A stretch of DNA of 64,000 nt from Thermodesulfobacteriota bacterium (GCA_034189135.1 JAXHVO010000125.1:29371-93370); one strand, 5' to 3'. Counted from the stretch's first letter, positions 24,638 to 49,657 are shown. A program made the numbers and translations. Notes: generated by a model not told the origin, from the sequence alone.

Positions 24638-24640
24638 TTT

Positions 24641-25807: not shown

Positions 25808-25824
25808 AGATCACCTCTTTTTGT

Positions 25825-25944
25825 TAACTCAAGTCTTGCACCCTGGACTTCCGTGACTATCAAGACGGTAATGGCTAAAAATAATATTTTTAGTTATTAC
25901 CGTCTAACGTTTTTGATAAATGAAAGAGTGTGAAACTTGAGTTA
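25825..25944. mobile_element. MITE-like repeat, family B, copy 2 (compact 120-bp hairpin)
   Basis: taactcaagtcttgcaccctgg ... agagtgtgaaacttgagtta with sub-terminal gacggtaat inverted. It belongs to the same family as 15191..15490. Confidence 0.7.
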
Positions 25945-26009
25945 TAAAATTAAATTTCATAGCTGATTGCTAACAGCAAAAACAAGAAACACTTCTTGCT
26001 CTTAATTGA

Positions 26010-26759
26010 TTAAATATATTGTCCTCCATCAACCTTGATCACTTCACCGGTAACATGTTTGGCCTTATCCGATGCCAGGAAAACGACTACATTTGCAAGA
26101 TCCTCCGGTTGGCCGACACGCTTTAACACGATTTCGTTCATCGCCATATCGATGATTTTGTCACGGGAGTCTGATTCTTTCAGCATGGTGGTCTCAATCA
26201 GTCCCGGTGCCACCGCATTGACGTTTACGTTGAATGCGCCCAGCTCTTTTGCTACGGCCTTGGTAAAACCAATGATTCCGGCCTTGGAAGCGGAGTAGTT
26301 GGATTGCCCGAATTTACCTCGCAGGCCGTTTATGGATGTAATGTTGATAATTTTCCCGTATTTCCGATTTTTGAAAATCGGGGCGACCTGGCGGGTAAAA
26401 TTAAAATAGCCTTTTAGGTTGACCTCGATCACGCGGTCCCACTGTTCTTCTGACATTTTCCAGGATACGCCGTCCCAGTTCATTCCCGCGTTGTTTACCA
26501 GGATGTCAATTCCGCCAAACTCGTCGATGGCTGTTTTAACAACGCTTTCGGCTTCAGAAAATGAGGAAATGTCGCATTTGACTGCAAGGGCTTTTCTGCC
26601 CATTTGGCGTATTTCCTCGGCATATTTTTTAGCCTCGGTATCGTGCTTACGATAGGTCAGGCATACATTTGCGCCTTCGCGGGCAAGTTCTAAAGAAGCA
26701 GCGGCCCCAATCCCTTGTGAGCCTCCGGTGACCAACGCATTTTTACCTTCTAAAAGCAT
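26010..26759 (-). CDS. Short-chain dehydrogenase/reductase (FabG-like 3-oxoacyl/3-hydroxyacyl reductase)
   Basis: TGGSQGIG cofactor motif, NNAG, and the YSASKAG catalytic Tyr/Lys. Confidence 0.85.
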   Translation of the reverse strand: MLLEGKNALVTGGSQGIGAAASLELAREGANVCLTYRKHDTEAKKYAEEIRQMGRKALAVKCDISSFSEAESVVKTAIDEFGGIDILVNNAGMNWDGVSWKMSEEQWDRVIEVNLKGYFNFTRQVAPIFKNRKYGKIINITSINGLRGKFGQSNYSASKAGIIGFTKAVAKELGAFNVNVNAVAPGLIETTMLKESDSRDKIIDMAMNEIVLKRVGQPEDLANVVVFLASDKAKHVTGEVIKVDGGQYI

Positions 26760-27039
26760 TTTTTTCTCCTTGTTTTATCTCTATTTGCCGGTTTTGTTAA
26801 AGTTAAATTGAAGCTACATTACAGCTACTTTTTAACTTAGTCAAGAAAAATAGTATTTGACGATTTTAAAGAATTCATTTCTTCGGTTTCTTCTTCAAAA
26901 CCATCCCATATTATAGCTATGCATTGATGTCTGACGGTCAGACGAAAAAAGCAAAGAAGGTTTTAACGCAGCGCATCGAAGGAAACCCGCAAGATAAAAT
27001 TACAATAAACAGATTGAAAGTAATACAACATAACGGTTT

Positions 27040-27747
27040 TTACTTTTTTTTCATTCCATAGCAGTATTGATTGCAAATATCAGCATTGGAACAATATTGG
27101 CACATGGTTCCAACTTTATGATCAGGATACTCATGACCCATCCCTATTATGGATGTTACTGATTTAAAAGGCTTTAAAACAGAAGCCTCATTGATTTGAA
27201 CACCTATTAAACCTGGGTCAAGTATTTTTGTTATCTGTTTTTGACCCAAAAGAGACCAGCCTTTTAAAGAACCAGGACTTAAAATGCCACCCACGCCCCA
27301 TGATCTTTGCGCGGCTTCTTTCTCTACAATTTTATTTATAATATCTCCTGTTTTCCCAAGCATTAAAACACCGATAGAATCAAGAAGATAAGATTGTAAA
27401 TAATTACCGGCCTTGTTATTTTTATCACTTTCTTTATCAATGGCTCCACCAATTGTATACAGAAATACAAAAATCATTTGTGCAGGTTTTAGAAGATTGA
27501 CATTTGAACCTATATTTAAAACATATTCTTCCTTGGAGTTGCTCCCTTTAACCTGTAAATTTGTATGATTTATTTCTTCCACCTGCATTAACTTGTAGAC
27601 AATTGCCGGGGTGCAAAGTTTACATGCTTTACTAAAAGCTTTTATCGCCTCTTTTTTTACCGCATAAGTTATGTTGGTATCCTTTTTAAGAAAATTTAAT
27701 AGTTCGTCAATGGAAAAATCAATTTTTATGTTATCTAAAACAGGCAT
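27040..27747 (-). CDS. Stand-alone vitamin B12-dependent methionine synthase activation-domain-like protein
   Basis: YLLDSIG...LSPGSLKGWSL..Q..I...L......IGVQINEASVLKPFKSVTSIIGMG matches the Met_synt_B12 pattern. A Cys-rich C-terminus is present. Confidence 0.65.
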   Translation of the reverse strand: MPVLDNIKIDFSIDELLNFLKKDTNITYAVKKEAIKAFSKACKLCTPAIVYKLMQVEEINHTNLQVKGSNSKEEYVLNIGSNVNLLKPAQMIFVFLYTIGGAIDKESDKNNKAGNYLQSYLLDSIGVLMLGKTGDIINKIVEKEAAQRSWGVGGILSPGSLKGWSLLGQKQITKILDPGLIGVQINEASVLKPFKSVTSIIGMGHEYPDHKVGTMCQYCSNADICNQYCYGMKKK

Positions 27748-27767
27748 GAAGAATTTTGTTCATGGAG

Positions 27768-28649
27768 TTATGGGGTCATGTTATCATCTTTTTCAAAATT
27801 GAAAAGTATATCATTTTCCAAATAAAGCTGTTCCAGTTTTTCCTGATGTTGTTTCAGCTTATCTCCTCTTTTTTTGGCAAGTGCATGTACAATATAATTT
27901 ATAAGAAATGTCAAAGATGTAAGATCTCCTAAAAATGGTATTTGACTGGTAGATGCTATAAGGCTGTGGTTGCAAAACTGCATTAAAGGGCATGATCTGC
28001 TGTCAGTTAAAAGTATCAGCTTATACCCCAGCCTTCGTACAATTTTACCGGTTTTAATAAGCTCGTTAGGATATCTTGAGGTTGCAATAGTTACAACTAC
28101 AGCTTTAGGATGTGCAATTGAAAGCCAGTCAAGTGATGTCCTGTCACTCCCCTTAAGAATATTTATATTATTCCTGATTTTTGTCATTGTCCATCCCATA
28201 TAATAAGCAGGGGCATATGACAGCCGTGAGCCAATAATATAAACAGCACCGGAACTGTCAAGCAAAGAGACAATTTTTTCAAGTTCATCCATATCAATGT
28301 TGCACAGGCTTTCAAGGTTGTTGATTTCCCGCATTATAGATTTTTTAAAATCCCTGGGTCCTTTATATCCATCCAATTCTGAAAGCTTACTTCTTTCAGT
28401 CAGGGTCAGCTCTGTGTCAATATGACTTTTTAAACCTTTGAGAAACTGGCTGTAACTTTTATACCCAATTTTGCGAACAAACCTTACTACAGTTGCTTCG
28501 CTGGCATTGACCTGTTTTCCAAGTTTTCTTGTGGTCATAAATACAGCATCCCCGGGATTTGCAAGAATAAACTTCGCAAGCTGTTTTCCCTTGGATGTAA
28601 GTATTGCTTCTCTTATTTTATGCTTTAAGCTTTTTGCTGATTTGTTCAT
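27768..28649 (-). CDS. MurR/RpiR family transcriptional regulator (HTH_6 + SIS), copy 1
   Basis: HTH (ASEATVVRFVRKIGY) and SIS (YIIGSRLSY...). It is clearly paralogous to 33985..34875. Confidence 0.85.
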   Translation of the reverse strand: MNKSAKSLKHKIREAILTSKGKQLAKFILANPGDAVFMTTRKLGKQVNASEATVVRFVRKIGYKSYSQFLKGLKSHIDTELTLTERSKLSELDGYKGPRDFKKSIMREINNLESLCNIDMDELEKIVSLLDSSGAVYIIGSRLSYAPAYYMGWTMTKIRNNINILKGSDRTSLDWLSIAHPKAVVVTIATSRYPNELIKTGKIVRRLGYKLILLTDSRSCPLMQFCNHSLIASTSQIPFLGDLTSLTFLINYIVHALAKKRGDKLKQHQEKLEQLYLENDILFNFEKDDNMTP

Positions 28650-28673
28650 ATGATACCACCAACCAATTAATAT

Positions 28674-30362
28674 TTATGGAAAACTGAGGTTTTTAATAAA
28701 ACTATCCATAAATTCAGGTGAGTTTGCTAGTTCCAGATGTTCCATGGTTTTTAGATTTTTTTCAAGAAAGTAGCGTTGATTAACGTCTGTTAAAAGGGTT
28801 ATGCTCCCGTCTATAGACGCATTTCCAATAAAAACCAGTTTTTCTGCTGTGTGTTCAGGGATAATACCTATTCTTTCCATATTATAAGGATTTAAATATT
28901 TCCCAAAGCCTCCTGCAAGATATAGTTTATCAATCTTGTCAGGGCTTATATTCCCCTTTTTAAGAATAATATCAATGCCGCTTCTGATTGCTCCTTTTGC
29001 CATCTGAATCTGGCGGATATCTTTCTGGGTAAGATAAATACCCTTTCCATATAAAAAAGATTTTTTATTATTAACCTGTACAACCCGAGCCTTATTCTCT
29101 TGCTTTGGGGAATCAGTATCTTTATTTAACAATAATTTTCCTGATGAATCAAGAGCACCTGTCTTTAAAAGTGCTGCAATAAAGTCAACAATGCCGCTTC
29201 CACATACGCCCCTGATTTCACTATTCCCAATTGTCTGAAATTTAAAATGTGAATTTACTATTTCAACATGCTCGATTGCTCCATATTCCGCTCTCATGCC
29301 TGAAGATATACTCATACCTTCAAAAGCAGGGCCTGTTGCAGTTGCTGTAGTATAACGTCTACCGCGGGCATTGAGACATATTTCACCATTAGTCCCAAGG
29401 TCAATATAAATAATGACTTTATCGTCATTAAAAAAATCAGAACAGGAAAGCAAACCTGCACTGATGTCGGAACCGACATATGCATGAATCACAGGTGGAA
29501 GATAGACTCGTGCGGAGTTATTTACTTTAAGGCCAAAATCTTTAGCTGGATATGATTTCCCTCCAATAATATCAAATTTAAAAGGCACTACTCCCAACGG
29601 AGAGGGATCAATTCCTGCTGCCAGTTGAAGCATGGTTGTATTGCCTCCAATGGTGACATCAATTACTTCATTTTTTTTGAATTTTAATGTTCTGCATGTT
29701 GTATCAAGAAGCCTGTTAAGTTCATTTTGAACCAGCTTTGTCATCTCTTTAAGCCCGGCCGGAGTTGAGGCATGCTGGATCCTGGTGATAACATCATGCC
29801 CGAGGGCAGTCTGAGGATTTAGACTTGAATCTGATGCAAGTATCTTTCCGGTTTTCAAAGAGACAAGAGAGACTGCAATGGTTGTTGTACCAATATCAAT
29901 AGCAAATCCTGTGGGCTCATACTCAGACTCCCAGGAAAAAGGTTTTGATGTATCAGCTTCCCTGTCATATTTTAGTTTGAAATCGCCATTCCGTGAAATT
30001 ATTTCAATGGCCGGGTCAAGTATATCCCGAAAAATTTTTTGCGCTTCAAGAATTTTACCTTTTGGAGCAGTATCCTGTTGATAAGAAAAATTCTCTCCAA
30101 GTTTTACAGATATATCCTGTTCAGGGACAAGCTGACATGCCAGCCTTAATCCCTGGGCAGCTTCTTCTTTGGTAATATCTTTATGTGGAGTGAAAGGAAC
30201 TTTGTCGGAATTTTGAACCCAGACCCTGCATTTACCGCAAACACCTTTGCCGCCACAGGGTGTCTCTATTTTTATTCCTGCTTTTTCAATAGCTTGATAC
30301 AAATTCATTCCCTTTTCAATTTCAATATTTATATCTAATTCTTTTATATAAACATTAATCAT
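28674..30362 (-). CDS. RACo-type ATP-dependent reductive activator of corrinoid proteins (2Fe-2S ferredoxin domain + ASKHA/DUF4445)
   Basis: N-terminal plant-type ferredoxin motif (CGGKGVCGKCRV), then ASKHA motifs (FAIDIGTTTI, DLGTNGE, ATGPAFEG). Confidence 0.8.
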   Translation of the reverse strand: MINVYIKELDINIEIEKGMNLYQAIEKAGIKIETPCGGKGVCGKCRVWVQNSDKVPFTPHKDITKEEAAQGLRLACQLVPEQDISVKLGENFSYQQDTAPKGKILEAQKIFRDILDPAIEIISRNGDFKLKYDREADTSKPFSWESEYEPTGFAIDIGTTTIAVSLVSLKTGKILASDSSLNPQTALGHDVITRIQHASTPAGLKEMTKLVQNELNRLLDTTCRTLKFKKNEVIDVTIGGNTTMLQLAAGIDPSPLGVVPFKFDIIGGKSYPAKDFGLKVNNSARVYLPPVIHAYVGSDISAGLLSCSDFFNDDKVIIYIDLGTNGEICLNARGRRYTTATATGPAFEGMSISSGMRAEYGAIEHVEIVNSHFKFQTIGNSEIRGVCGSGIVDFIAALLKTGALDSSGKLLLNKDTDSPKQENKARVVQVNNKKSFLYGKGIYLTQKDIRQIQMAKGAIRSGIDIILKKGNISPDKIDKLYLAGGFGKYLNPYNMERIGIIPEHTAEKLVFIGNASIDGSITLLTDVNQRYFLEKNLKTMEHLELANSPEFMDSFIKNLSFP

Positions 30363-30383
30363 ACAATTCTCCTTTAAATAAAG

Positions 30384-30552
30384 GTAACTACTCAGGTGGA
30401 TAGGCTGAAGACTGAAGACTGTTAGGAAAAAGCGTATTTTGAAGCCATGTTTGGTTCAACAATCACATTCCGTCTAAATAAGACAATCGTGTTCTTCTGA
30501 CCCCTTCAGCCTTCAGTCTAAACAGCTTTAGCCTGACTACGTTAGTAGTTAC
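30384..30552 (-). mobile_element. MITE-like repeat, family A, copy 2
   Basis: 9-bp perfect terminal inverted repeat gtaactact/agtagttac. The flanks AAATAAAG and AAATAAGG look like a target-site duplication. It is the reverse complement of copy 1. Confidence 0.75.
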
Positions 30553-30792
30553 AAATAAGGTTCGTTTAAATCAGATAAAATGTAATACTAACATGCAATA
30601 TTAATGTTTTAGAAGTCAATAGATATCTTTTTTCTATTAATTTTATATTTATTGATAGGTTTTGTTACATTTTTCTTGACACGTAATAAAATAGATGCCA
30701 TTTCGATAAATAATAGCAGTTATAATTAACGCTTCAGACCTCGTTTAGTAGTTAAGTTGCCGAGGTCTAAAATCAAAGCAAAGGAGAAAATT

Positions 30793-32244
30793 ATGGAATT
30801 AAAAGGTTTGCAGGGTGGACAATACCGCCCTCTTTCTGAAGAACAGGTAAAAACAATACATAATGCATCTCTGACTATTCTGGAAAAAACAGGAATAAGC
30901 TACGAGGAAGGTCTTGGCAGCACTGCTGAAATGCTTGAAAAAAATGGTGCTTTACTAGACAGAGATAAAAGAAAAATCAAATTTTCAAAAGATCTACTCA
31001 TGGATCAGGCGGCAAAGGCTCCTGAGCAGGTTATTCTCTATGGGCAGGATAGCAAAAATGATCTTAATCTTTCTGAAGATCGTGTTTACCTGGGAACCGG
31101 GGGAGCCGCCATCAAAATAATTGATCCTGAAACTGATGAAGTAAGATCCACGACTCTGGCAGACCTTTATAATGTTTCAAGGCTTGTGGGTCAGTTGGAT
31201 AATATTCATTTTCTGGTAAGACCCTGTATTCCAACTGATATACCTGAAAATGCCTACGACATAAACATGTATTACGCATGCCTTAAGGCAACAACCAAGC
31301 ATGTTATGTCAGGAGTTAATAATGTAGAAGGTTTCCATAAAGTGCTTGATCTTGCTTCAATGATTGCAGGCGGAAAGGACAAATTCAAAAAAAGACCTTT
31401 TATTTCGATAATAACTTCTTTTGCAATAAGTCCCTTAAAACTCTGTACCCAGTCCACGCATATAATGCAGGAAGCCAACCGTCATAATATTCCTGTTGCC
31501 TTGTCCTGCGCTCCCATGGCAGGCTCCACATCTCCTCTTACCATGGCGGGAACACTTGCTCAGATCCATGCTGAACAGCTTGTTGGAATAACTATCTGCC
31601 AGCTTACAAATCCCGGAGCACCGATTCTTTATGGGGGAATTCCAGGCATGGCAAATCTTAAAACCATGGGATATTTAGGCGGAGCTGTTGAATGCGGCAT
31701 GATGAATGCTGCAATCCATCAGCTTTCACGCTTTGTCAAAGTTCCAAATTATAATTCATCAGGACTTACCGATTCCAAGGTTCCGGATGCTCAGGCCGGA
31801 TGGGAAAAAGCATTAACAGCTGCTCTTGCCTCCATGGGTGGCTCCAATTATATTCATCACAGTGCAGGAATGCTTGAATCAATGCTTACTATTGCGCATG
31901 AGCAGTTTGTGATTGATGATGAAATCATTGGAAACTGCTGCAAGATTTTAAAGGGAATTGATGTTGACCCTGAACATCTTGCAATAGAAGTTATAGAATC
32001 CGTCGGTCCCGGTGGAAATTTCATGGTATCACCCCATACAATGACCCATATGAGAACAGAATATTTTAATGGTATTGGAGTCACAGATAATAAAAGTCGT
32101 GCCAAATGGGAAAAGGAAGGTTCTCTTGATGCCAGGGCAAGGGCAAAAAAAATTGCAAAAGAACTTCTTGAAAAAAGTGAAACTTCATATATTCCGGATG
32201 AAATTGATAAAGCAATCAGGGAAAAATATGAAATATTACTATAA
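30793..32244 (+). CDS. MttB-superfamily methyltransferase, non-pyrrolysine type (quaternary amine such as glycine betaine : corrinoid methyltransferase)
   Basis: The N-terminus LSEEQVKTIHNASLTILEKTGI is typical of the MttB family. There is no in-frame TAG. ATG 30793 lies 7 nt after AAGGAG, and the ORF opens with TTG at 30757. Confidence 0.8.
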   Translation: MELKGLQGGQYRPLSEEQVKTIHNASLTILEKTGISYEEGLGSTAEMLEKNGALLDRDKRKIKFSKDLLMDQAAKAPEQVILYGQDSKNDLNLSEDRVYLGTGGAAIKIIDPETDEVRSTTLADLYNVSRLVGQLDNIHFLVRPCIPTDIPENAYDINMYYACLKATTKHVMSGVNNVEGFHKVLDLASMIAGGKDKFKKRPFISIITSFAISPLKLCTQSTHIMQEANRHNIPVALSCAPMAGSTSPLTMAGTLAQIHAEQLVGITICQLTNPGAPILYGGIPGMANLKTMGYLGGAVECGMMNAAIHQLSRFVKVPNYNSSGLTDSKVPDAQAGWEKALTAALASMGGSNYIHHSAGMLESMLTIAHEQFVIDDEIIGNCCKILKGIDVDPEHLAIEVIESVGPGGNFMVSPHTMTHMRTEYFNGIGVTDNKSRAKWEKEGSLDARARAKKIAKELLEKSETSYIPDEIDKAIREKYEILL

Positions 32245-32268
32245 AAATTTATAAAAGGGGAAAATATA

Positions 32269-32901
32269 ATGACTGATTTTAATGAAATTAAAGAATCTCT
32301 GGTAGGGTGTGATGAACCAAAACTTGTTCAACTGGTAAATGATGCCCTGGAACAAAAAATTCCTGCGGTGGATATCCTGAATAAAGGGCTTATTGCAGGT
32401 ATGGATATTGTTGGTGATAAAATGGAAAATGAAGAGATGTTTATCCCTGAGGTTCTTATGGCAGCCCAGGCAATGAGCAGCTGCGTTACGGTTTTAAAAC
32501 CCCTTCTTGGTGATGAGGACAGTGTGGGAGGAGGGACTGTTGTCATTGGAACTGTTAAAGGGGATCTCCACGATATCGGGAAAAACCTTGTTGCTATGAT
32601 GATTGAAAGTGGTGGAATGACTGTTCATAATCTTGGAGTTGATGTTTCACCGGAACAATTTGTTGAACAGGCCAAAGAAAAGAATGCAAATATTATCTGT
32701 CTTTCCGCACTTCTTACCACAACAATGCCAATGATGAAACAGACCATTGATGCTGTTGCTGAAAGCGGTTTAAGGCAACAAGTTAAAATAATGATAGGCG
32801 GTGCCCCTGTAACCCAGGCATTTGCCGATGAAATTGGAGCAGATGGTTTTGCAGCTGATGCAGGTTCTGCTGTAAAAGCTGCTAAAGCTTTTATGCTATA
32901 G
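32269..32901 (+). CDS. Corrinoid (cobalamin-binding) protein
   Basis: 210 aa with a B12-binding_2 cap helix region, the DxHxxG motif (GDLHDIGKNLV) and a GG Rossmann-like region. Confidence 0.85.
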   Translation: MTDFNEIKESLVGCDEPKLVQLVNDALEQKIPAVDILNKGLIAGMDIVGDKMENEEMFIPEVLMAAQAMSSCVTVLKPLLGDEDSVGGGTVVIGTVKGDLHDIGKNLVAMMIESGGMTVHNLGVDVSPEQFVEQAKEKNANIICLSALLTTTMPMMKQTIDAVAESGLRQQVKIMIGGAPVTQAFADEIGADGFAADAGSAVKAAKAFML

Positions 32902-32922
32902 TAACAAGGAGGGATATCGGAT

Positions 32923-33723
32923 ATGTTTGAAGTCATAGGCGAACGAATAAATACTTCGAGAAAAAATGTACAAACCGCTGTTGCCGATAGAAATGCTTCC
33001 TATATTCAGGATGACGTAAAAAAGCAGCTTGATGCAGGATCAAATTATATTGATGTTAACGCAGGTGCCAGAATTGGTCGTGAAAAGGAGGATATGAAGT
33101 GGCTTCTTGATACAATTCTACCCATTGCCACCGTGCCTCTCTGCCTTGACAGTCCTGATCCGGCTATTCTTGAGATGGCTTTTAAAATGGTTGATAAAAC
33201 TCCCATGATAAATTCTATCAGTCTTGAAAAAGACCGGTTTGAAGCCATGATTCCATTTTTAAAAAACAACGATTGTAAAATTATTGGACTTTGTATGGAT
33301 GATGCAGGCATGCCGTCTTCATCCGAAGATATAATAGCAAGGGCTGAAAAACTTGTTAAAGAGCTTGAAAATATTGGATCTAATCAGGATTCCATCTACC
33401 TTGATCCTCTTGTCCAGCCCATTAGTACAGACAGCACAAAAGGAACAATGGTGCTCAATGCTGTGAGAAGCATAAAAAACAAATTCCCTAAAGTACATAT
33501 TACAGGCGGACTTTCAAATATTTCATATGGACTCCCGCAAAGAAAAATTATTAACAGAACCTTCGTGGCTCTTATGATGGAAGCCGGCATGGATTCTGCC
33601 ATAATTGATCCTCTGGATTCGGCAATTATGGCAACAATAAAAACAGCAGATATGCTTCTTGGAAATGATAATTTTTGCGGGAATTATCTCAAAGGAGTTC
33701 GAGCTGGTGCAATTCTGAGTTAA
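32923..33723 (+). CDS. Methylcorrinoid:tetrahydrofolate methyltransferase (pterin-binding, MtgA/AcsE-like)
   Basis: IGERINTS N-terminus, a pterin-binding TIM barrel pattern (DVNAG, ISLE, GLSNISYGLP). Confidence 0.75.
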   Translation: MFEVIGERINTSRKNVQTAVADRNASYIQDDVKKQLDAGSNYIDVNAGARIGREKEDMKWLLDTILPIATVPLCLDSPDPAILEMAFKMVDKTPMINSISLEKDRFEAMIPFLKNNDCKIIGLCMDDAGMPSSSEDIIARAEKLVKELENIGSNQDSIYLDPLVQPISTDSTKGTMVLNAVRSIKNKFPKVHITGGLSNISYGLPQRKIINRTFVALMMEAGMDSAIIDPLDSAIMATIKTADMLLGNDNFCGNYLKGVRAGAILS

Positions 33724-33767
33724 ACGGGTGGTTTGATGAAGACCCTTCGAATGCTTCTAAAAGGCTA

Positions 33768-33880
33768 TGAACGTCGAACATCGAACATCCAACGTCGAAT
33801 TCTGAATAAGGTATTCTGACTATTTATAAGCTGGCGGAGCGAAGCGATTTCATTCATTAGATTTTCAACGTTCGCTGTTC
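33768..33880. repeat. Family C repeat (tandem GAACATCGAACG-type units plus GAGCGAAGCG core), copy at the methyltransferase module boundary
   Basis: tgaacgtcgaacatcgaacatccaacgtcgaat ... ggcggagcgaagcgat ... caacgttcgctgttc. Confidence 0.65.
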
Positions 33881-33984
33881 TGCAAACACTTTACTCTACC
33901 GTATTTTTCTTATTGATACTATTGAGTATTTTTATTCTCGCCGTAACGATAAAACCGATTAGGATCGCTCGGGCATAACGGGTG

Positions 33985-34875
33985 CTACCTTTTTCCGGGG
34001 ATTTCGGTTTCTAAGTTGAAAAGAACATCATTTTCCCAATAGGCCTGTTCAAGCTTTTCCTGATGCCCAATAAGTGCTTCCCCACGCTGGCTGGCCAATT
34101 CCTGAATGAGATAATTAGTCAGGCATGAGATGGTCGTCGGACTGCCGATGTAAGGAATATGTCGCGAAGGAGCAATCAATGCGGTGTTGGCAAACTGAAT
34201 AAGCGGGCAGGTGGAGCTGTCTGTGATGACCAGCAGCTTTTGTTCCAATCGGCGTGCGAGCTTGCCGATGCGTATTAACTCGTTAGGATACCGTGTAGTG
34301 GCAATAATGACCGCCAGGCTGTCTTCAGGCGCAATGGTCAGCCAGTCTATGGTGGTGCGATCACTTCCTTTTAATATATGAATATTCTGACGGACTTTAG
34401 TCAGGGACCATCCCATATAATACGAAAGAGTGTAGGAAAGGCGTGATCCAATCACATAAATATGGCTTGATTTAAGCAGCAGGTCCACCGCTTCGCCAAT
34501 CAGCGTCATATCTATGGTTTCAAACAATTGCCTCAGGTTGTCCATCTCTTCAGATACTACCCGACGAAAGCGTTCGGAACCCGGGCTTTTCATGTCGGTA
34601 AAGTTCAAACGTTCCAGCATCGTCAGCTCGGTATCAACAAAATCCCTTAAAATTTGCTGAAACTCGCCATACCCGTAAAATCCGAGTTGGTTTACAAAAC
34701 GAACCACTGTTGCTTCGCTGACGTTGCATGCTTCGGACAGCTCTTTTGTAGTCATAAATACAGCTTTACGGGCGTTTTCAGTAATATAATCTCCGAGAAT
34801 ACGTGCTTTGGGCGTTAATTCTGAGTAGTAATCATAAATTTTTTGAATCAGCGGATGTAGTTGTGTACCTGCCAT
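33985..34875 (-). CDS. MurR/RpiR family transcriptional regulator (HTH_6 + SIS), copy 2
   Basis: VSEATVVRFVNQLGF and YVIGSRLSY...ILKGSDRT...RYPNELI...HQEKLEQ are shared with copy 1. It is divergent from soxB. Confidence 0.85.
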   Translation of the reverse strand: MAGTQLHPLIQKIYDYYSELTPKARILGDYITENARKAVFMTTKELSEACNVSEATVVRFVNQLGFYGYGEFQQILRDFVDTELTMLERLNFTDMKSPGSERFRRVVSEEMDNLRQLFETIDMTLIGEAVDLLLKSSHIYVIGSRLSYTLSYYMGWSLTKVRQNIHILKGSDRTTIDWLTIAPEDSLAVIIATTRYPNELIRIGKLARRLEQKLLVITDSSTCPLIQFANTALIAPSRHIPYIGSPTTISCLTNYLIQELASQRGEALIGHQEKLEQAYWENDVLFNLETEIPGKR

Positions 34876-35228
34876 GGCAATTCCCCTTTAATGAAATGAT
34901 ATTTTTTATTCCAAAGATAGGTTTCATTTTTTTTATTTCAACTCTTTTTCTGTCTTCAAAACGATATTTAACATAGTTGGCAGAAAATTACAATAAGTAG
35001 CATAAAATTTTATATGACTATAAAACTTTTAAATATAGCCATTTATGATATGTTAAAGTTTTCTTTAGCTTGATAAAACATAACTGAACAGGTTTTTATT
35101 TCGGACGTTGCAAAATAATATCAATGAAAGATATTTTTATTCTTGACATTAAATCTTTCGTATGGCAATGCTTTCTTTCATTGTAGAAACCTTATCTCAT
35201 ATTCCTTATTTAATTGGAATTAAACCAT

Positions 35229-36452
35229 ATGTTTTATAAATACAAACGGTTATGGGCTCTACCCACGAGCCTTCGCTCTAATTATGACGCTGTAATTATT
35301 GGCGGTGGCCTGCACGGTTTAGCAACCGCCTATTTTTTAGCGCGTAATCATGGAATGCGCCGTGTAGCGGTTATTGAAAAACGATACATTGGTTTTGGCG
35401 GCTCCGGTCGCAATACAGCCATTGTCCGTGCCAACCAGCGAACCCAGGAAAATCTCCCCCTTTATAAAGAAGCCCTTGAACTCTGGCCGGTATTGACCCG
35501 CGAGCTTGACTTTAATCTTATGTTTTATAACTGCGGAAATCTGAACCTGGCCCACAGCGAAGCCGCACTTAAAGCCATGCGAATGCAAGTGGCCTCGGCC
35601 CAGTTCCACGGGATTGAAAGCCGGCTTGTCGATCCCATGCAATGCAAGGAACTTATTCCTGCCCTGGATATTTCCGACAGACCTCGATATCCGATTTTCG
35701 GAGGAATGTACCATCCGCCCGGCGGAATTGTTCGCCATGATGCCCTGGTTTGGGGACTGGCCAAAGGAGCCGCTAAACAAGGTATCCACATTCATCAGGG
35801 AACAGAAGTCACCGGTATCGGTATGGAAAACGGAAAAATTGTTTCCGTGGATACAGACAAAGGTAAAGTGCATACACCGTGCGTACTTAACGCAGCCGGG
35901 GCTTATACAGCCGCTCTTTCTTATCAAATGCTCAGGATACGCCTGCCAATCAGTGCGCTCACCATTCAGGCCATGGTTACACAACCGTTAAAGCCCTTGT
36001 TAAACCATGTGGTTTCTTCCGGTTCGTACCATTGTTACGCCAACCAGACGCTCAAAGGTGAAATCGCGACCGGCGCCCATATGGATCCCTGGCCTAATTA
36101 CACAACCCAGAACACGGCTCATTATATCAAGCATCAGGCAGAAGCCCTTACTGAAATGATGCCATGCCTGAAAGGTATTAAATTTATGAGGATTTGGGGA
36201 GGTATAGCTGATATGACACCGGATATGGCACCGATCATGGATGGCAACAACCCTGTTAAAGGCTATTTTATGGACTGTGGCTGGGGCTACTTTGGGTTCA
36301 AATCATCCACAGTCACCGGCAAATATATGGCTCAGTTCATGGCCACCGGCGAATGTCCGGAAATTCTCAAACCCTTTACCCTGCGGCGGTTTGAACAGCA
36401 TCGTCTGATGGGAGAAACAGCAGCGCTGGTTAACTACAGCCCGGACAATTAA
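35229..36452 (+). CDS. soxB: Heterotetrameric sarcosine oxidase beta subunit-like FAD oxidoreductase
   Basis: YDAVIIGGGLHGLATAYFLARNHGM dinucleotide motif and SoxB-like length and order. ATG 35229 was chosen; the ORF opens with TTG at 35214. Confidence 0.8.
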   Translation: MFYKYKRLWALPTSLRSNYDAVIIGGGLHGLATAYFLARNHGMRRVAVIEKRYIGFGGSGRNTAIVRANQRTQENLPLYKEALELWPVLTRELDFNLMFYNCGNLNLAHSEAALKAMRMQVASAQFHGIESRLVDPMQCKELIPALDISDRPRYPIFGGMYHPPGGIVRHDALVWGLAKGAAKQGIHIHQGTEVTGIGMENGKIVSVDTDKGKVHTPCVLNAAGAYTAALSYQMLRIRLPISALTIQAMVTQPLKPLLNHVVSSGSYHCYANQTLKGEIATGAHMDPWPNYTTQNTAHYIKHQAEALTEMMPCLKGIKFMRIWGGIADMTPDMAPIMDGNNPVKGYFMDCGWGYFGFKSSTVTGKYMAQFMATGECPEILKPFTLRRFEQHRLMGETAALVNYSPDN

Positions 36453-36543
36453 GATGGCGTCATAAAAAGTCCGCTTTAGACTGTTTCGTAAAATTTTTTG
36501 AATAAACGCCGGATGGCTAAGTAAAAAGGCTCATATACAAGGC

Positions 36544-36605
36544 GTAGCGATTTTTCAGGGACGAGACTATACATTCAGTATGTCGAGTTCCTGAAAAATC
36601 GCTAC
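36544..36605. repeat. 62-nt hairpin between soxB and soxD
   Basis: gtagcgatttttcagggacgagac / gtcgagttcctgaaaaatcgctac form an approximately 24-bp stem with few mismatches and a 14-nt loop. Confidence 0.7.
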
Positions 36606-36658
36606 AACGCAGTAGATGAGACTTTTCACGACGTCATCAATTAAAAGGAAATAGATTT

Positions 36659-36916
36659 ATGGCATTAACCATCACATGCCCGATCTGTGGTAAACGCAAT
36701 GGATATGAATTTCGCTTCGGTGGCGAAGACAAAGGGCCACGACCTGATGAAGCTGGAATGACGCCGGAGACCTGGTGCGACTATACCCATATGAATAACT
36801 GCATCGCCGGCATTCAAAAAGAATGGTGGTATCACCGGGACGGGTGCAGCTCCTGGTTTACCATCTATCGGGACACACGCATTAATTTGGAAGTATCTTC
36901 ACCCGATTTGGATTAA
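36659..36916 (+). CDS. soxD: Sarcosine oxidase delta subunit-like protein
   Basis: 85 aa with ITCPICGKRNGYEFRFGGE...WWYHRDGC..WF, the SoxD zinc-binding pattern. Confidence 0.8.
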   Translation: MALTITCPICGKRNGYEFRFGGEDKGPRPDEAGMTPETWCDYTHMNNCIAGIQKEWWYHRDGCSSWFTIYRDTRINLEVSSPDLD

Positions 36917-36950
36917 TGAGGGGTCAGGGAGTTTTTCAATCTCTACTCAG

Positions 36951-37187
36951 TTCGTCCGGGGAAGCGCCTATTTGCCCGTATCAGCCTTAACAATAATTTT
37001 GAGAAACTGGCGTTCGGCAGATATCTTGCTGAAATTCGATTCGAACCAGCCCCAAGGGCCAGAACCCCACGGCAGCGTTTATCGTCTCTGCCTGTATGGA
37101 TTTAACTGAAAAGATAGGGGGCGTGTACATAGTGCTGGACTTTTTTGTTAAGGCTGATACAGGCAAATAGGCGCTTCCCCGGACGAA
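36951..37187 (+). repeat. 237-nt structured palindromic element, family D, copy 2 (inside the sox operon)
   Basis: 36951-36993 is the reverse complement of 37145-37187 with 1 mismatch in 43. It has the same length, orientation and core blocks as 12631..12867. Confidence 0.85.
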
Positions 37188-37284
37188 CCACTAACAATCA
37201 TTAAAGATCAAACGGTTTGCAAAAAAGCCCATTGACAAGAAACTCCCCGATCCCCCGATTAATAAAACATTGGAGTGGTCAATA

Positions 37285-40209
37285 ATGAACAGACTCGATC
37301 ATTTGCCGACATTGCGAGTAAACCCTGAAAAAAAGGTTTCCATAAGTTTCCTGGGCAAAACCTATCAAGGGGCGGAAGGCGACACAATTGCCACGGCTCT
37401 TTATGCCGGTGGCGTTCGTATTTTTGCACGAAGCCTGAAATATCACCGCCCCAGGGGGCTTTACAGTCTGGACGGAGAGTGCAGCAACACCTTGATGGAA
37501 GTTGACGGCATTCCCAATGTGCGTACGGAAAATACTATTGCCGAAAAAGGCATGACCGTAAAAGCACAAAATGTGGTTGGAAAAAGCCCTGAATTAGACC
37601 TAATGGGCTTTATGGACAAATTAAGTTGGGCCATGCCTGCCGGATTTTACTATCGTACCATGCACAAACCGGCACAAATTTGGCCTGTTGCCATTAAGCA
37701 GGTCAGGAAACTTGCCGGGCTTGGTGTGCTTTCACCAAATTTTACGATGAAGCGCAACTGCGATGAAGTCTATTTAAAAGCCGATGTATGTATTATCGGA
37801 GGCGGTCCTGCAGGCATGTTAGCGGCTCTCGCAGCATCCGAACAAGGGTTACGTGTGACCTTGCTGGAAAATCGGCCCTGGCTTGGCGGCTTTTTTGAAT
37901 ATCGCCCTGCAACATACAAACAAGACGTTCCCCTTTACAAAAGAGCAAGAGAGCTTGCTCAAAAAGTAGAGCAGGCCACAAATATCCGGGTTTTTAAACA
38001 CACAGCCATGATAGGTGCCTATAACAACAACCTGATTACCGCCTTTCAGAGAGGAAGCGAAACGGATTCCTTTGACCAGCGCTATGTTGAAATCAGAGCC
38101 GAAAGTGTGGTGGTAGCCACAGGCTGCATCGAACGTCCTCTTTTGTTCGAAAATAATGAACGACCCGGCGTGATGCAGATCGGATGCGCCCATCGTTTGG
38201 CGCGAACCTATGGACTGCTTCCAGGCAAATCATCGGTTTTCAGTATTGGAGACGACCTGGGACTCGAAGCTGCAATCGATCTTTTTGATCTGGGGATTAG
38301 AATTCCCTGTGTGGCGGACATCCGTGAAGACGGTCAGGATTCTGCTATGGTTGTCGAACTTTCAAAAAGAAAAATTCCTTTTTTCAGTGGTTGGGCGGCT
38401 AACAAAGTTCATGGTAAAAAAGGAGTAAAAAAAGTTACTTTAAGCGACATCACCGGAAAAAAACATCGTGAATTTCCCTGCGATATACTGATTGCTTCAG
38501 CCGGTTTGACGCCGGTGACCGGACCACTCAGCCTTTCAGGAGCGAAACTGGCTTTTGACAGCCATACCGGATTCTTTCTACCCAAACAATTACCTGAAAA
38601 AATGCATGTTGCGGGAAGAATGCTCGGTTTGAACGATCCAATGGCCATAGAAATTTCCGGCAGCCTTGCCGGGCTCGAAGCAGTTGCTGACTGTGGAATT
38701 ACTATGGACAAACACATCAGCACGGCCGCAGCATCCCTGAAGGCACTGCCCGGACCGGTTAGAGGTACAAAAATAGCCACAGTACCGGGGAAAGGCCATA
38801 AGACCTTCATTTGTTTTGACGAAGACACAACCCTTAAAAATGTTGACCAGGCCATAACCATGGGATTTGATGTCCCGGAGCTGATTAAGCGCTTCGCTTC
38901 CGCAGGAACAGGCCCTGGCCAGGGAGCGATTCCAGGACACAATCTGGCTTTGTATGTCAGCCGGACCCATCTTTCACCGGACAGCAATCCCAAACCGACC
39001 ACGGTCAGGCCACCTATTGTACCGACTTACCTGGCAACTTATGCAGGCACCAACCATGATATGAGTAAGAGCACGCCGGTTCATAAATCTCAGGTTGAAT
39101 CAGGCGGTATAATGGAACGGTTAGGCGTCTGGAACCGCGCACGCCGTTTTTCCGACGACAATACCGCAAAGGAAGAAATCGAAAATGTCCGTGATAATGT
39201 AGGAATGCTGGACGCCACCACCCTTGGCAAATTTCGGGTATTCGGCCCGGATGCGTTGAAAGCGCTTCAACGGGTGTATGTCAGCAACATGGAAAAGTTA
39301 GTCCCCGGTCGCATCAAGTACACTGCCATGTGCAACGAGGATGGCTGCCTGATTGATGACGGTGTTGTTATCAAGCGGGCGGAAAACGATTATTACCTCA
39401 CCACTTCAACCGGTCGGGCCGGTGGCACGGTGGAATGGTTTCGGTATCATACCCGTTACGACAACTGGGATTTTCACATAGTCAACCTGACGGATGCATT
39501 CGGTGTGATTAACCTGGCCGGACCAAATTCACGAAAATTACTTGAGAAAGTAATCGATGCGAATGTTTCAAATAACGCCTTTCCCTTTGCAGGTTATGGT
39601 GAGTTTTTAATTAAAGACGCCATTTCCGTTCGCGCCATGCGTCTTGGGTTTGTGGGTGAGCTTTCATATGAATTCCATGTACCTGCATCATATATGCAGA
39701 CTCTTTGGGATATTCTGGAAGACGCGGGAAAGGAATTTGGCATTAAAAAATTCGGTCTGGAAGCCCAGAATACGTTGCGGATGGAAAAAGGACATGTAAT
39801 CATTGGATCGGAATCCGAGCAACGCACCACCTTGCATGATGTAGGGCTTGGTTTTTTGTGGGATCGTCACAAGCCCGATGCCAAAACGGTGGGTGCTGTG
39901 GCCCTGCAACAGACAGAAGATCAGAAAGGACGCCTGAAACTTGTGGGTTTTAAGATGGAAAATCCTTCATCCAGAGCACCCAAAGATGGTTCTCTGGTTG
40001 TGGATAGCAAGATCCGTGGATATGTCTGCATGGCGCGTTACAGCCACACATTGGAAGAACCAGTCGGCATGGCCCTGGTCGAGGAGCCCCTTTCAAAGGT
40101 AGGCACTCGGCTTGAAATTTTCGAGGATGATTGTAATGACGAGCATCTTTATGCCAAGGTGGTTCAAATGCCGCTTTACGATCCTGACGGAAAACGAATG
40201 AAAATGTAA
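37285..40209 (+). CDS. soxA: Sarcosine oxidase alpha subunit-like protein (N-terminal 2Fe-2S-like/NAD-FAD domains, C-terminal GcvT-type folate-binding domain)
   Basis: ATALYAGGVRIFARSLKYHRPRGLYSLDGEC N-terminus, the VCIIGGGPAGM dinucleotide motif and a C-terminal aminomethyltransferase-like domain (GMLDATTLGKFRVFGPDA). ATG 37285 lies 9 nt after GGAG. Confidence 0.85.
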   Translation: MNRLDHLPTLRVNPEKKVSISFLGKTYQGAEGDTIATALYAGGVRIFARSLKYHRPRGLYSLDGECSNTLMEVDGIPNVRTENTIAEKGMTVKAQNVVGKSPELDLMGFMDKLSWAMPAGFYYRTMHKPAQIWPVAIKQVRKLAGLGVLSPNFTMKRNCDEVYLKADVCIIGGGPAGMLAALAASEQGLRVTLLENRPWLGGFFEYRPATYKQDVPLYKRARELAQKVEQATNIRVFKHTAMIGAYNNNLITAFQRGSETDSFDQRYVEIRAESVVVATGCIERPLLFENNERPGVMQIGCAHRLARTYGLLPGKSSVFSIGDDLGLEAAIDLFDLGIRIPCVADIREDGQDSAMVVELSKRKIPFFSGWAANKVHGKKGVKKVTLSDITGKKHREFPCDILIASAGLTPVTGPLSLSGAKLAFDSHTGFFLPKQLPEKMHVAGRMLGLNDPMAIEISGSLAGLEAVADCGITMDKHISTAAASLKALPGPVRGTKIATVPGKGHKTFICFDEDTTLKNVDQAITMGFDVPELIKRFASAGTGPGQGAIPGHNLALYVSRTHLSPDSNPKPTTVRPPIVPTYLATYAGTNHDMSKSTPVHKSQVESGGIMERLGVWNRARRFSDDNTAKEEIENVRDNVGMLDATTLGKFRVFGPDALKALQRVYVSNMEKLVPGRIKYTAMCNEDGCLIDDGVVIKRAENDYYLTTSTGRAGGTVEWFRYHTRYDNWDFHIVNLTDAFGVINLAGPNSRKLLEKVIDANVSNNAFPFAGYGEFLIKDAISVRAMRLGFVGELSYEFHVPASYMQTLWDILEDAGKEFGIKKFGLEAQNTLRMEKGHVIIGSESEQRTTLHDVGLGFLWDRHKPDAKTVGAVALQQTEDQKGRLKLVGFKMENPSSRAPKDGSLVVDSKIRGYVCMARYSHTLEEPVGMALVEEPLSKVGTRLEIFEDDCNDEHLYAKVVQMPLYDPDGKRMKM

Positions 40210-40252
40210 AATCGCATATTCGGTAGATTTCAAAAAAATGGAGTAAAATAAA

Positions 40253-40891
40253 ATGACCATCTATCAACGCCGTTCTCCTGTTTCATTTTCAGCCACTCCT
40301 GTAAAAACAGAAAAGCGGGATAACTGGACAGTGGTATTGGAATATGAAGGTGAAGGAAGAGGTCCCTGGCTGATCGATTTAAGCCACAGGGCCAAATGGG
40401 ACTTGCAGGACGGTAATATTGATGCGGTTAAATCCTGGGGTCTTTCCATACCGAAAGTACCAGGGGAATCTGTTTTTAAAAATGGACTGCTTATTAATCG
40501 CATGAACCGCACACAGGCATCGATCTGGCATTTATCCGGAGACCACCTGCAAGCTCCTGACGGCTCAGCGTACACCGATACTACCGACACAACGTTGTTT
40601 CTTACTCTTGCAGGGAATCAAGTTTTTTCAATAACTGAAAAATTAACCTCCCTGGATCTCATCGATCCTGAAAAAAAAGCGCCTTTTCTGCTCCAGGGAC
40701 CGTTATCCCATGTTCCCTGTCAGGTAGTAGTACTGGAAATAAATGGGGAAAGCGGCATAGTCCTTTTGACCTGTTCCAGGGGATACGCTCATGATATGGT
40801 CCATGCAATCCTTGAGGCAGGAAAGGAATTCAGACTCCGCCCTGCCGGGGAGAATGCATTCCAGAGTCAGCTTAAAAAATTGTTGGTTTAA
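40253..40891 (+). CDS. soxG: Sarcosine oxidase gamma subunit-like protein
   Basis: 212 aa lying directly after soxA. Size and position fit SoxG, but sequence motifs are weak. Confidence 0.6.
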   Translation: MTIYQRRSPVSFSATPVKTEKRDNWTVVLEYEGEGRGPWLIDLSHRAKWDLQDGNIDAVKSWGLSIPKVPGESVFKNGLLINRMNRTQASIWHLSGDHLQAPDGSAYTDTTDTTLFLTLAGNQVFSITEKLTSLDLIDPEKKAPFLLQGPLSHVPCQVVVLEINGESGIVLLTCSRGYAHDMVHAILEAGKEFRLRPAGENAFQSQLKKLLV

Positions 40892-40971
40892 ACCCAGAGG
40901 TCACTGTCTTCAAAATCATTCTTCAAAAAAAGAGGGGTATTTAATAACCAAAAACAAAAAGGAGGGGTATT

Positions 40972-42621: not shown

Positions 42622-42636
42622 GCTGTGTTGAACTCT

Positions 42637-42672
42637 GCGGCCCCTGTAATGGAGTTACCTCCAGGGGGCCGC
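42637..42672 (+). other. Intra-operon stem-loop after the binding-protein gene
   Basis: gcggcccctg ... cagggggccgc form an approximately 10-bp GC-rich stem with a 15-nt loop. No clear U-tract follows. Confidence 0.5.
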
Positions 42673-42724
42673 TACACATAATATTCCGGGAGATAACACC
42701 CGGACTGAATGATAATTTAAGCCT

Positions 42725-43666: not shown

Positions 43667-43686
43667 CACTTGGATCAAAGGATATC

Positions 43687-44541: not shown

Positions 44542-44544
44542 TCT

Positions 44545-49654: not shown

Positions 49655-49657
49655 ATT

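Follow-up and report, generated by a model that had tools for sequence, protein, structure and literature searches.

N-Methylglutamate dehydrogenase (NMGDH; MgdABCD) is a homolog of the heterotetrameric sarcosine oxidase (TSOX) encoded by soxBDAG. It acts as a dehydrogenase on compounds of the type CH3-NH-CH(R)-COOH and is commonly misannotated as Sox (PMC13236597). The enzyme is known from aerobic Proteobacteria, in which its genes are clustered with gmaS and mgsABC or induced with the hom operon, and it catalyzes the terminal demethylation step for marine N-methylated metabolites in the N-methylglutamate pathway and in homarine catabolism (PMC13236597). A 2025 report described, in aerobic marine bacteria, a corrinoid betaine methyltransferase co-located with genes for later demethylation steps (PMC12478193), and in other anaerobes corrinoid methyltransferases have been proposed for betaine and dimethylglycine, followed by sarcosine reductase (PMC9768040). 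A cold-seep metagenome paper draws soxB and the dimethylglycine dehydrogenase (DMGDH) gene in mtgB cluster types without comment, and nothing on a Sox-corrinoid system in sulfate reducers or Desulfobacterales was found in the searchable literature. Here, we describe a corrinoid methyltransferase module and a soxBDAG-like operon in a 64,000-nucleotide stretch of DNA from a Thermodesulfobacteriota bacterium (GCA_034189135.1 JAXHVO010000125.1:29371-93370; referred to below as the window). We read positions 27,040 to 59,358, with a probability of roughly 0.55, as one composite island for the anaerobic N-demethylation of an imported N-methylated osmolyte.

Methylated osmolytes such as the betaines are major carbon and nitrogen currencies of marine sediments and noncompetitive precursors of methane. 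To our knowledge, the anaerobic routes for these compounds stop at dimethylglycine, cleave betaine reductively to trimethylamine, or reduce sarcosine by means of a selenoprotein. Flavin-dependent N-demethylation is linked to electron transfer flavoprotein (ETF) in mammalian sarcosine dehydrogenase (SARDH) and DMGDH and in Pseudomonas DgcAB-Etf, with a GcvT-type folate domain trapping the one-carbon (C1) unit. The locus described here points to an oxygen-free route for stripping methyl groups from marine osmolytes that has not previously been described and that is probably not a simple glycine betaine route. Within the TSOX/NMGDH family, it would form an anaerobic branch that is probably linked to ETF and is coupled to uncharacterized MttB subfamilies. 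If this is true, a widespread flavin- and folate-coupled, O2-independent demethylase in the dominant complete-oxidizing sulfate reducers would divert osmolytes to CO2 and ammonium, away from methylamines and methane. The TSOX architecture, that of a textbook oxidase, would then have an anaerobic dehydrogenase branch.

Gene content and host of the two modules

The gene map was based on an open reading frame (ORF) listing and on Pfam and NCBIfam profile searches of the window proteins, and these confirmed the positions of all genes listed in the original prediction. The methyltransferase and sarcosine oxidase-like modules comprise the following features.

27040-27747, minus strand: MetH-activation-domain-like protein of 235 residues, identified by family profile, with an extra C-terminal Cys cluster
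27768-28649, minus strand: RpiR/SIS regulator 1 (HTH_6 and SIS)
28674-30362, minus strand: RACo-type reductive activase of corrinoid proteins (Fer2, Raco_middle and RACo_C_ter; AcsV model, E=1.8e-118)
30793-32244, plus strand: MttB-superfamily methyltransferase (MT1), non-pyrrolysine (PF06253, E=2e-106, profile positions 22-490 of 500)
32269-32901, plus strand: corrinoid protein (B12-binding_2 and B12-binding; DLHDIG, a DxHxxG motif, at residues 99-104)
32923-33723, plus strand: methyl-corrinoid:tetrahydrofolate methyltransferase (MT2; Pterin_bind; PRK07535, 322 bits against a cut-off of 259)
33985-34875, minus strand: RpiR/SIS regulator 2, divergent from soxB (HTH_6 and SIS)
35214-36452, plus strand: SoxB-like flavoprotein subunit (DAO, E=7e-69; TIGR01373, 388 bits against a cut-off of 529)
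36659-36916, plus strand: SoxD-like zinc-finger subunit (PF04267, E=9e-23)
36920-37258: insertion of about 340 bp between soxD and soxA, resembling a miniature inverted-repeat transposable element (MITE), with 47-nucleotide terminal inverted repeats at 36950-36996 and 37142-37188
37285-40209, plus strand: SoxA-like subunit (Fer2_4, Pyr_redox_2, SO_alpha_A3, GCV_T with E=4e-67, GCV_T_C with E=2e-13)
40253-40891, plus strand: putative gamma subunit of 212 residues (weak GCV_T; position and size)

Related loci were collected in two surveys. For sox, one genome per species was scanned, which returned 47 loci. All ORFs in these loci were clustered without prior labels, and neighbors were counted by cluster membership or by tblastn, which gives rise to small differences between counts. 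As many contigs carrying sox loci end early, all neighbor counts are minima. For the MttB ortholog, three genome neighborhoods and 80 metagenome loci were inspected, and partner frequencies were counted over 32 loci of at least 12 kb. Labels such as L001, L003 and L053 denote fetched relative loci.

SoxA homologs of 68 to 88% identity fill the top 120 database clusters, the named ones belonging to Desulfonema, Desulfococcaceae and Desulfobacterales. Homologs of SoxA (60 to 88% identity) and of MttB (69 to 95%) come almost only from Desulfobacterota, and the nearest relatives of both proteins are from Desulfobacterales (Desulfonema, Desulfospira, Desulfobacula and Desulfocicer). Nearly all of the 47 sox loci are likewise from Desulfobacterota, including the cultured strict anaerobe Desulfospira joergensenii, with the soxBDAG order conserved. 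MttB orthologs (69 to 95% identical) are abundant in Desulfobacteraceae such as Desulfobacula, Desulfospira, Desulfocicer niacini and Desulfamplus. The window also encodes, at 59691-61998, equivalog-level matches to the anaerobic benzoyl-CoA pathway, genes of which had been noted earlier: had scores 487 bits (cut-off, 339) and oah scores 551 bits (cut-off, 464). As the nearest SoxA and MttB relatives are Desulfobacterales and had and oah are present, the anaerobic genome context assumed in the original prediction is well supported; the host is a Desulfobacterales-type anaerobe with a genome of the sulfate-reducer type. Judged by this distribution, the Sox-like operon is conserved throughout a large lineage of anaerobes and is no peculiarity of a single genome.

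Recurrent linkage of corrinoid methyltransferase and sox-like genes

Corrinoid-system genes (encoding MttB paralogs, the corrinoid protein, MT2 or RACo) were present in 17 of the 47 sox loci. Among the 22 loci flanked by 5 kb or more on each side, 14 carry corrinoid genes or ETF. The MttB ortholog itself adjoins sox in five different arrangements, the first being that of the window and its 95%-identical relative L053. In L003, soxBDAG, MT2, MttB, the corrinoid protein and dpp follow one another co-directionally; in L079, the matches to soxG and mttB share a few bases, apparently in a single operon; in L101, an MttB paralog, soxBDAG, MttB, PrpD, the corrinoid protein and MT2 stand in series; and in L122, the MttB ortholog and sox are divergent. 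A survey of anaerobe genomes for this linkage had been proposed with the original prediction, and the linkage does recur, in these five arrangements, among Desulfobacterota.

In L067, the genes for RpiR1, the Opu importer, a 309-residue protein, a phosphoesterase, MttB, the corrinoid protein, MT2, a PrpD-like protein and a GlmS-like protein form one contiguous cluster. In the window, these genes stand in two parts, 27768-33723 and 47000-59358, on either side of the RpiR2-soxBDAG-dpp block. Because the L067-type gene set reaches position 59358, the feature extends well past the end at 40891 assigned to it earlier.

As originally predicted, each module has a copy of a paralogous RpiR/SIS regulator, the two being 49% identical. 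Orthologs of regulator 1 adjoin MttB-ortholog/Opu clusters in other genomes, and those of regulator 2 were found in 20 of the 47 sox loci, in most cases next to soxB on its upstream side and in divergent orientation. Since five independent arrangements were found and the regulators are paralogous, the repeated juxtaposition of MttB and sox genes argues for functional coupling. An AT-rich stretch ending in TTGACA is shared by the regions upstream of mttB (30670) and soxB (35137); as a common operator for the two RpiR paralogs, it was considered too weak to claim.

Downstream of soxG, the 47 loci encode a 445-residue MSOX/SolA-like flavoprotein (12 loci), EtfB (9 loci) and EtfA (8 loci). Three sox loci additionally encode a 664-residue membrane protein with Fer4 and two CCG domains, which resembles quinone-linked Fe-S oxidoreductases of anaerobes. 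Because relatives thus encode two flavoenzymes of the N-methyl-amino-acid type beside EtfBA and a membrane oxidoreductase, this context suggests ETF and then menaquinone, not O2, as the candidate acceptor of the Sox-like enzyme. The anaerobic host and the ETF linkage in relatives also argue against O2. The original prediction had treated heterotetrameric Sox as an O2-dependent enzyme of aerobes, which overlooks the homologous dehydrogenase MgdABCD (PMC13236597). Its proposal that this particular homolog acts as a dehydrogenase is nevertheless the only sensible reading, with EtfBA and a membrane Fe-S oxidoreductase encoded after soxG in relatives.

The module following soxG consists of genes for a YbaK/tRNA_edit-domain protein, the MSOX/SolA-like flavoprotein, EtfB and EtfA (L004, L005, L007, L015, L017, L020, L027, L033 and L040), and then ends either in the membrane Fer4 and CCG oxidoreductase with a Tdh-like Zn-dehydrogenase or in a sigma-54 activator. 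The YbaK/tRNA_edit protein thus places an aminoacyl-tRNA editing domain in a sox-etf setting.

Substrate-binding residues of MttB and the methyltransferase module

The best PDB match of the window MttB is MtgB of D. hafniense (E=6e-72). According to a 2026 active-site study of MtgB, Y97 and F356 make cation-pi contacts to the trimethylammonium group and R312 and H348 contact the carboxylate; R312L abolishes activity, and the Km is several hundred-fold higher with Y97A or F356L (PMC13080624). Arg312 pairs with the carboxylate of the substrate in a salt bridge; MtgB, MtcB, MtpB, MtyB and MthB retain it, as do all characterized members with acidic quaternary amines as substrates (PMC13080624). 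Specificity was judged by a residue-level test for the MtgB motif in the window protein and nine orthologs. The positions corresponding to Y97/R312/H348/F356 are G/Y/H/M and invariant in this set, the window protein keeping one of the four glycine betaine-binding residues, His348. The local alignment at Arg312 is unambiguous (VP.[R/Y]..(S/G)GL.DSK), with Tyr in the window protein and in all nine aligned orthologs. MttB paralogs flanking sox in other loci likewise lack the arginine.

Because Y97, R312 and F356 are replaced by G, Y and M across the ortholog clade, the window protein is best classified from its residues as a non-pyrrolysine MttB-family methyltransferase that is not of the MtgB type. 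The earlier assignment of the methyl transfer system to the MtgB/MtpB/MtcB type overstates the evidence: three of the four MtgB binding residues, including Arg312, are replaced clade-wide. Glycine betaine bound as it is in MtgB is probably not the substrate, which for this ortholog group is not inferable from the characterized members.

Other features of the module agreed with the original description. The ATG of mttB was placed at 30793 from database orthologs (a longer ORF runs from 30757), and the absence of an in-frame TAG was confirmed, the ORF being uninterrupted with CTT (CUU, Leu) at 31765-31767, the UAG position of PYLIS_3 (model positions 1 to 3). An Rfam PYLIS_3 match lies inside mttB (31765-31867; 46.6 bits; gathering threshold, 38). 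With a Leu codon at the UAG site, it was rejected as a functional pyrrolysine insertion element and reflects coding-sequence homology; the family can, as this match indicates, give false positives on non-Pyl homologs. The DxHxxG motif of the corrinoid protein was found as DLHDIG, and this protein scores about 200 bits against MtgC and MtbC models, under their cut-offs. The pterin-binding methyltransferase passed the PRK07535 cut-off, and all three RACo-type domains were found in the activase. A nested imperfect inverted repeat (30384-30421 versus 30507-30552) lies in the divergent intergenic region between the RACo gene and mttB.

The assignment of a MetH-activation protein held at the level of the family profile but not for the window protein taken by itself, which has no direct Pfam or NCBIfam match, PF02965 being absent even at E values up to 5. 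When 91 relatives are combined in a family profile, it matches structure 1J6R, a stand-alone protein resembling the MetH activation domain (E=2.6e-13), as well as MetH activation domains (8G3H, MetH residues 1047-1166; E=2.7e-5), and 17 of the 91 relatives match PF02965. At this profile level, the protein is placed as a distant member of the MetH-activation-domain family. In its C-terminal Cys cluster, C216 and C219 are invariant, C225 is present in at least 90% of members, and C229 occurs in the window protein. The family comprises about 1,500 representative clusters of proteins of about 230 residues with a C-terminal CxxCx5C motif that is absent from MetH and that could bind a metal or an Fe-S cluster.

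The sarcosine oxidase-like operon

The claim of a full heterotetrameric sox operon stands for the beta, delta and alpha genes, which occur in this order; the gamma gene is assigned by position and size only. Alpha, beta and delta pass the Pfam domain cut-offs and do not reach the NCBIfam family cut-offs. The SoxB-like protein is 37% identical to the S. maltophilia TSOX beta subunit. Its His175, invariant in 35 sequences, aligns with TSOX beta His173 (2GAG_B), which we take to be the site of covalent flavin mononucleotide (FMN) attachment. In the SoxD-like protein (NCBIfam score, 70 bits; cut-off, 116), Cys7, Cys10, His59 and Cys63 align with the Cys/Cys/His/Cys zinc ligands of TSOX delta (1VRQ_D).

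The SoxA-like ORF starts at 37270 or 37285 and has an NCBIfam score of 663 against a cut-off of 1164; among solved structures, TSOX alpha chains match it best (E=1e-99). The GcvT-type folate domain that had been noted in this subunit is clearly retained (GCV_T, E=4e-67) and has VGMLDATTLGK in common with TSOX alpha. A 2Fe-2S cluster in the Fer2_4 domain was considered as a new electron exit and rejected: the first 160 residues contain a single Cys (C71), and relatives have one to four, with no conserved set. NCBI labels SoxA relatives as 2Fe-2S binding (SoxA/HcnA/OoxA type) on account of the Fer2_4 domain, for which the four cysteine ligands are lacking here.

The gamma candidate has no PF04268 or TIGR01375 match, and a profile of its clade (31 members) finds no TSOX gamma subunit in the PDB. 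It directly follows soxA in 32 related loci, and its single-sequence AlphaFold model has a pLDDT of 33.

Two noncoding features lie within the operon. The 207-bp soxB-soxD spacer contains a hairpin with 24-nucleotide arms (36544-36605), the 3' arm and downstream sequence of which are conserved in L001. The repeat arms of the MITE-like insertion are 96% complementary and were found in none of 132 fetched loci and nowhere else in the window. The insertion itself is absent from L001 to L003 and from the 95%-identical L053, in which the soxD-soxA gap is 18 to 24 bp (24 bp in L053). Promoter and terminator scans of the window gave counts equal to those in shuffled sequence and were uninformative.

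Importers, PrpD-like and GlmS-like genes and flanking regions

The island continues downstream of soxG with the following features.

40972-46861, plus strand: Dpp/Opp-type ABC importer (binding protein with SBP_bac_5, two permeases with BPD_transp_1, two ATPases with ABC_tran and oligo_HPY)
47000-51412, plus strand: OpuC-type quaternary-amine ABC importer (permease fused to a Zn ribbon, CBS ATPase, permease, OpuAC binding protein)
51467-53135, minus strand: 309-residue protein and metallophosphoesterase (Metallophos for the second)
53467-54789, plus strand: MmgE/PrpD-family protein (Pfam)
54814-59358, plus strand: GlmS-like protein of 1,514 residues (Ntn-amidotransferase-like N-terminus, two SIS domains, C-terminal part of about 470 residues without a family)

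Both downstream importers named in the original prediction were verified by domain content. In L003, L053 and L078, the MttB ortholog or sox is followed by an ortholog of the Dpp-type binding protein (71 to 94% identity); L078 has no sox. The Dpp-type importer probably brings in the methylated substrate, and import of this kind has a precedent in Prb, an Opp-like transporter for proline betaine in Sinorhizobium. The same four OpuC-type genes adjoin MttB orthologs in L050, L051, L057, L067 and L074, among others. The first OpuC-type permease (47000-48469; 489 residues) is fused to an N-terminal zinc ribbon, and a form of about 494 residues recurs beside MttB orthologs. The 309-residue protein has no Pfam or NCBIfam match; orthologs of this protein and the phosphoesterase lie between Opu and the MttB ortholog in L050, L051, L057 and L067.

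The usual partners of the MttB ortholog are the corrinoid protein, MT2, the OpuC-type importer, the RpiR1-type regulator, the 309-residue protein, the phosphoesterase and the PrpD-like and GlmS-like proteins, often with a second MttB paralog. Of the 32 MttB-ortholog loci with 12 kb or more, 15 have the PrpD-like gene, in many cases within the methyltransferase operon, and 12 have the GlmS-like gene, which is also present in L048 and L050. They are the most frequent non-methyltransferase partners of the MttB ortholog across Desulfobacteraceae and sometimes lie between the genes for the corrinoid protein and MT2. In Desulfospira joergensenii DSM 10085, the locus with the MttB ortholog and both partner genes (L048) is separated by about 170 kb from soxBDAG-DAO-etfBA (L020), the two being on one 2.4-Mb contig. 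The 1,514-residue protein matches GlmS models over residues 633-1040 (E=6e-33), and residues 1-59 and 361-458 have weak PDB matches to GlmS glutaminase domains. No literature linking MmgE/PrpD or GlmS-like proteins to MttB was found. As these proteins are such common partners, the substrate may be more complex than glycine betaine, and their conservation would suggest a larger or conjugated methylated compound. Homarine pathway genes were considered as an explanation of the two partners and discarded, since the protein families do not correspond.

Elsewhere in the window, the genes at 38-6799 include a Mo-hydroxylase set that is similar to 4-hydroxybenzoyl-CoA reductase or xanthine dehydrogenase; two of them are for Mo-binding subunits, and the scores stay under the equivalog cut-offs. 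Beta-oxidation-type genes lie at 21065-26759.

Proposed pathway and alternative explanations

In the composite-island reading, the OpuC-type and Dpp/Opp-type importers would bring in the substrate, and MttB would take one methyl group from an amine, quaternary or possibly tertiary, with the corrinoid protein in its Co(I) state as the acceptor. MT2 would pass this group to tetrahydrofolate (THF), with RACo and the MetH-activation-like protein re-reducing oxidized cobalt. From the N-methyl amino acid formed in this way, the SoxBDAG-like flavoenzyme would then remove the last N-methyl group oxidatively, the C1 unit being released as 5,10-methylene-THF by the GcvT domain. Acting as a dehydrogenase, it would most likely pass its electrons to ETF and from there to menaquinone. 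The two paralogous RpiR/SIS regulators would control the two modules. Complete-oxidizing Desulfobacteraceae use the Wood-Ljungdahl pathway, and all C1 units would enter its folate branch to be oxidized with sulfate. Of this reading, the genes present, the cofactor motifs, the anaerobic lineage and the recurring linkage are observed, and the identity of the substrates, the role of ETF as acceptor and the co-regulation are inferred.

Several findings weigh against this reading. Sox adjoins the MttB ortholog in only about 4 of the 46 metagenome loci of at least 9 kb, and since MttB paralogs are numerous in these genomes, some chance adjacency is expected; by our own rough estimate, dozens of paralogs per genome would give about 10% per 20-kb neighborhood, compared with the 17 of 47 observed. 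The G+C content of the methyltransferase module (26001-34000) is 38 to 39%, versus 43 to 50% in the sox-dpp block (34001-46000) and the window flanks, which suggests that the two modules have separate histories and were joined recently. The 64-kb window contains no etf genes, no second flavoprotein and no second MttB paralog. In relatives, ETF always accompanies the extra DAO-type flavoprotein and may serve that protein alone and not Sox. The 47-bp stem of the MITE-like insertion could impair expression of soxA and soxG or attenuate transcription. Finally, demethylation of a quaternary amine yields a tertiary amine, whereas classical TSOX oxidizes secondary amines and is inhibited by dimethylglycine; one step would therefore lack an assigned enzyme. 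This gap would be filled either by a broader range of the Sox-like enzyme or by a second methyltransferase or flavoprotein acting in between, genes for which are encoded by relatives but not by the window.

The difference in G+C content would also fit two unrelated neighbors: given how numerous MttB paralogs are in Desulfobacterales, one of them may have come to lie beside a Sox-like operon with another purpose, for instance the breakdown of free sarcosine, of N-methylglutamate or of peptides taken up through Dpp. Sox is absent from most loci of the MttB ortholog, and this ortholog is absent from most sox loci and from the region upstream of sox in the closest sox relative, L001. Sox and Mgd operons are known as terminal steps of several different pathways (PMC13236597). 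We nevertheless regard mere proximity as decidedly unlikely. It does not account for five independent joins that include the overlap of soxG and mttB in L079 and the insertion of sox among methyltransferase genes in L101, nor for the other MttB subfamilies and corrinoid proteins that adjoin sox in a further dozen loci, the paralogous regulators, or the nesting of the sox-dpp block between halves of a gene set that is contiguous in L067. Least probable of all, and in our view a very remote prospect, is a true oxidase used during transient O2 exposure at oxic-anoxic interfaces, whether for sarcosine oxidation or for O2 scavenging. The enzyme keeps the histidine for covalent FMN and the general TSOX architecture, SoxA has no Fe-S cluster or other obvious electron exit, and many sulfate reducers tolerate and reduce O2. 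However, dozens of strictly anaerobic lineages have kept the operon, which is linked to O2-sensitive Co(I) chemistry, EtfBA and a menaquinone-type membrane oxidoreductase, and an oxidase that forms H2O2 would harm cells of this kind. N-Methylglutamate dehydrogenase, a homolog with the same architecture, moreover works as a dehydrogenase (PMC13236597).

The pathway first proposed for this locus ran from betaine through dimethylglycine and sarcosine to glycine. In its exact form, MttB would have MtgB function, the Sox-like enzyme would oxidize both dimethylglycine and sarcosine, and all three methyl groups would reach THF. In marine sediment, glycine betaine dominates among the quaternary amines; the best solved match of MttB is MtgB, the corrinoid protein is closest to MtgC and MtbC models, and an OpuAC/OsmF-like betaine-binding protein is present. 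Marine Desulfobacterium strains that demethylate glycine betaine are cited in PMC8547467, and stepwise corrinoid demethylation of betaine and dimethylglycine has already been proposed for anaerobes (PMC9768040). The anaerobic context and the MttB-Sox linkage of that scheme are retained here. The scheme itself is weakened because the MtgB motif fails (Y97G, R312Y and F356M throughout the clade, with R312L MtgB inactive [PMC13080624]), because the dimethylglycine step is missing, and because the PrpD-like and GlmS-like partners have no role in it. The window holds one MttB gene, no dimethylglycine dehydrogenase and no enzyme for the conversion of dimethylglycine to sarcosine. Cultured Desulfobacterium strains, furthermore, stop at dimethylglycine. 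Taken together, the exact betaine route appears unlikely.

Returning to the composite island, a bolder extension can be put forward tentatively, as a doubtful but attractive idea. Desulfobacterota may carry a previously unrecognized, O2-independent, ETF/menaquinone-coupled clade of Sox-type enzymes. Together with uncharacterized MttB subfamilies lacking the arginine for acidic substrates, it would enable sulfate reducers to strip marine osmolytes of every N-methyl group under anoxia, and dimethylglycine- and sarcosine-type compounds would no longer be dead ends or substrates of reductases only. The MttB clade, with its PrpD-like and GlmS-like partners, would then act on a methylated amine new to corrinoid methyltransferases, be it tertiary, non-acidic or conjugated.

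Comparison with known systems

The Sox-like operon shares with TSOX of Corynebacterium sp. and Stenotrophomonas maltophilia (1X31 and 2GAG) the beta-delta-alpha-gamma order, the beta FMN histidine and the delta Cys3His set. Its alpha subunit also has the Rossmann, A3 and GcvT folate domains and the cysteine-poor Fer2_4-like N-terminus of TSOX. It differs in the low identity of beta (37%), in the scores of alpha, beta and delta under the NCBIfam cut-offs, in a gamma subunit unrecognizable by sequence, and in about 40 extra residues after the N-terminal domain of alpha. It further differs in its anaerobic host and in having relatives with EtfBA and a membrane Fe-S oxidoreductase. Compared by description with Mgd, the window genes do not include gmaS, mgsABC or hom genes.

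The ETF-dependent enzymes SARDH and DMGDH resemble the Sox-like enzyme in flavin-dependent N-demethylation and in GcvT, and the GcvT domain of the window SoxA matches DMGDH structures. SARDH, DMGDH and DgcA are, however, either single-chain DAO and GcvT proteins or of the old yellow enzyme type, whereas the window encodes a four-subunit TSOX-type enzyme and ETF is found only in its relatives.

The methyltransferase module resembles the MtgBCD and MtgBC-MtgA systems of D. hafniense, A. woodii and M. vulcani and of the aerobic Ruegeria pomeroyi in its MT1, DxHxxG corrinoid protein, MT2, RACo/RamA-type activase and nearby betaine transporter. In contrast to these systems, the window MttB lacks the betaine residues of MtgB and is tied to PrpD-like and GlmS-like partners, which are not known in Mtg systems. 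The host, unlike those of the aerobic Mtg systems, is an anaerobe. Compared with the betaine-fermenting anaerobes, the locus has a Sox-like enzyme instead of the proposed sarcosine reductase (PMC9768040), the place of which Sox would take in a betaine scheme.

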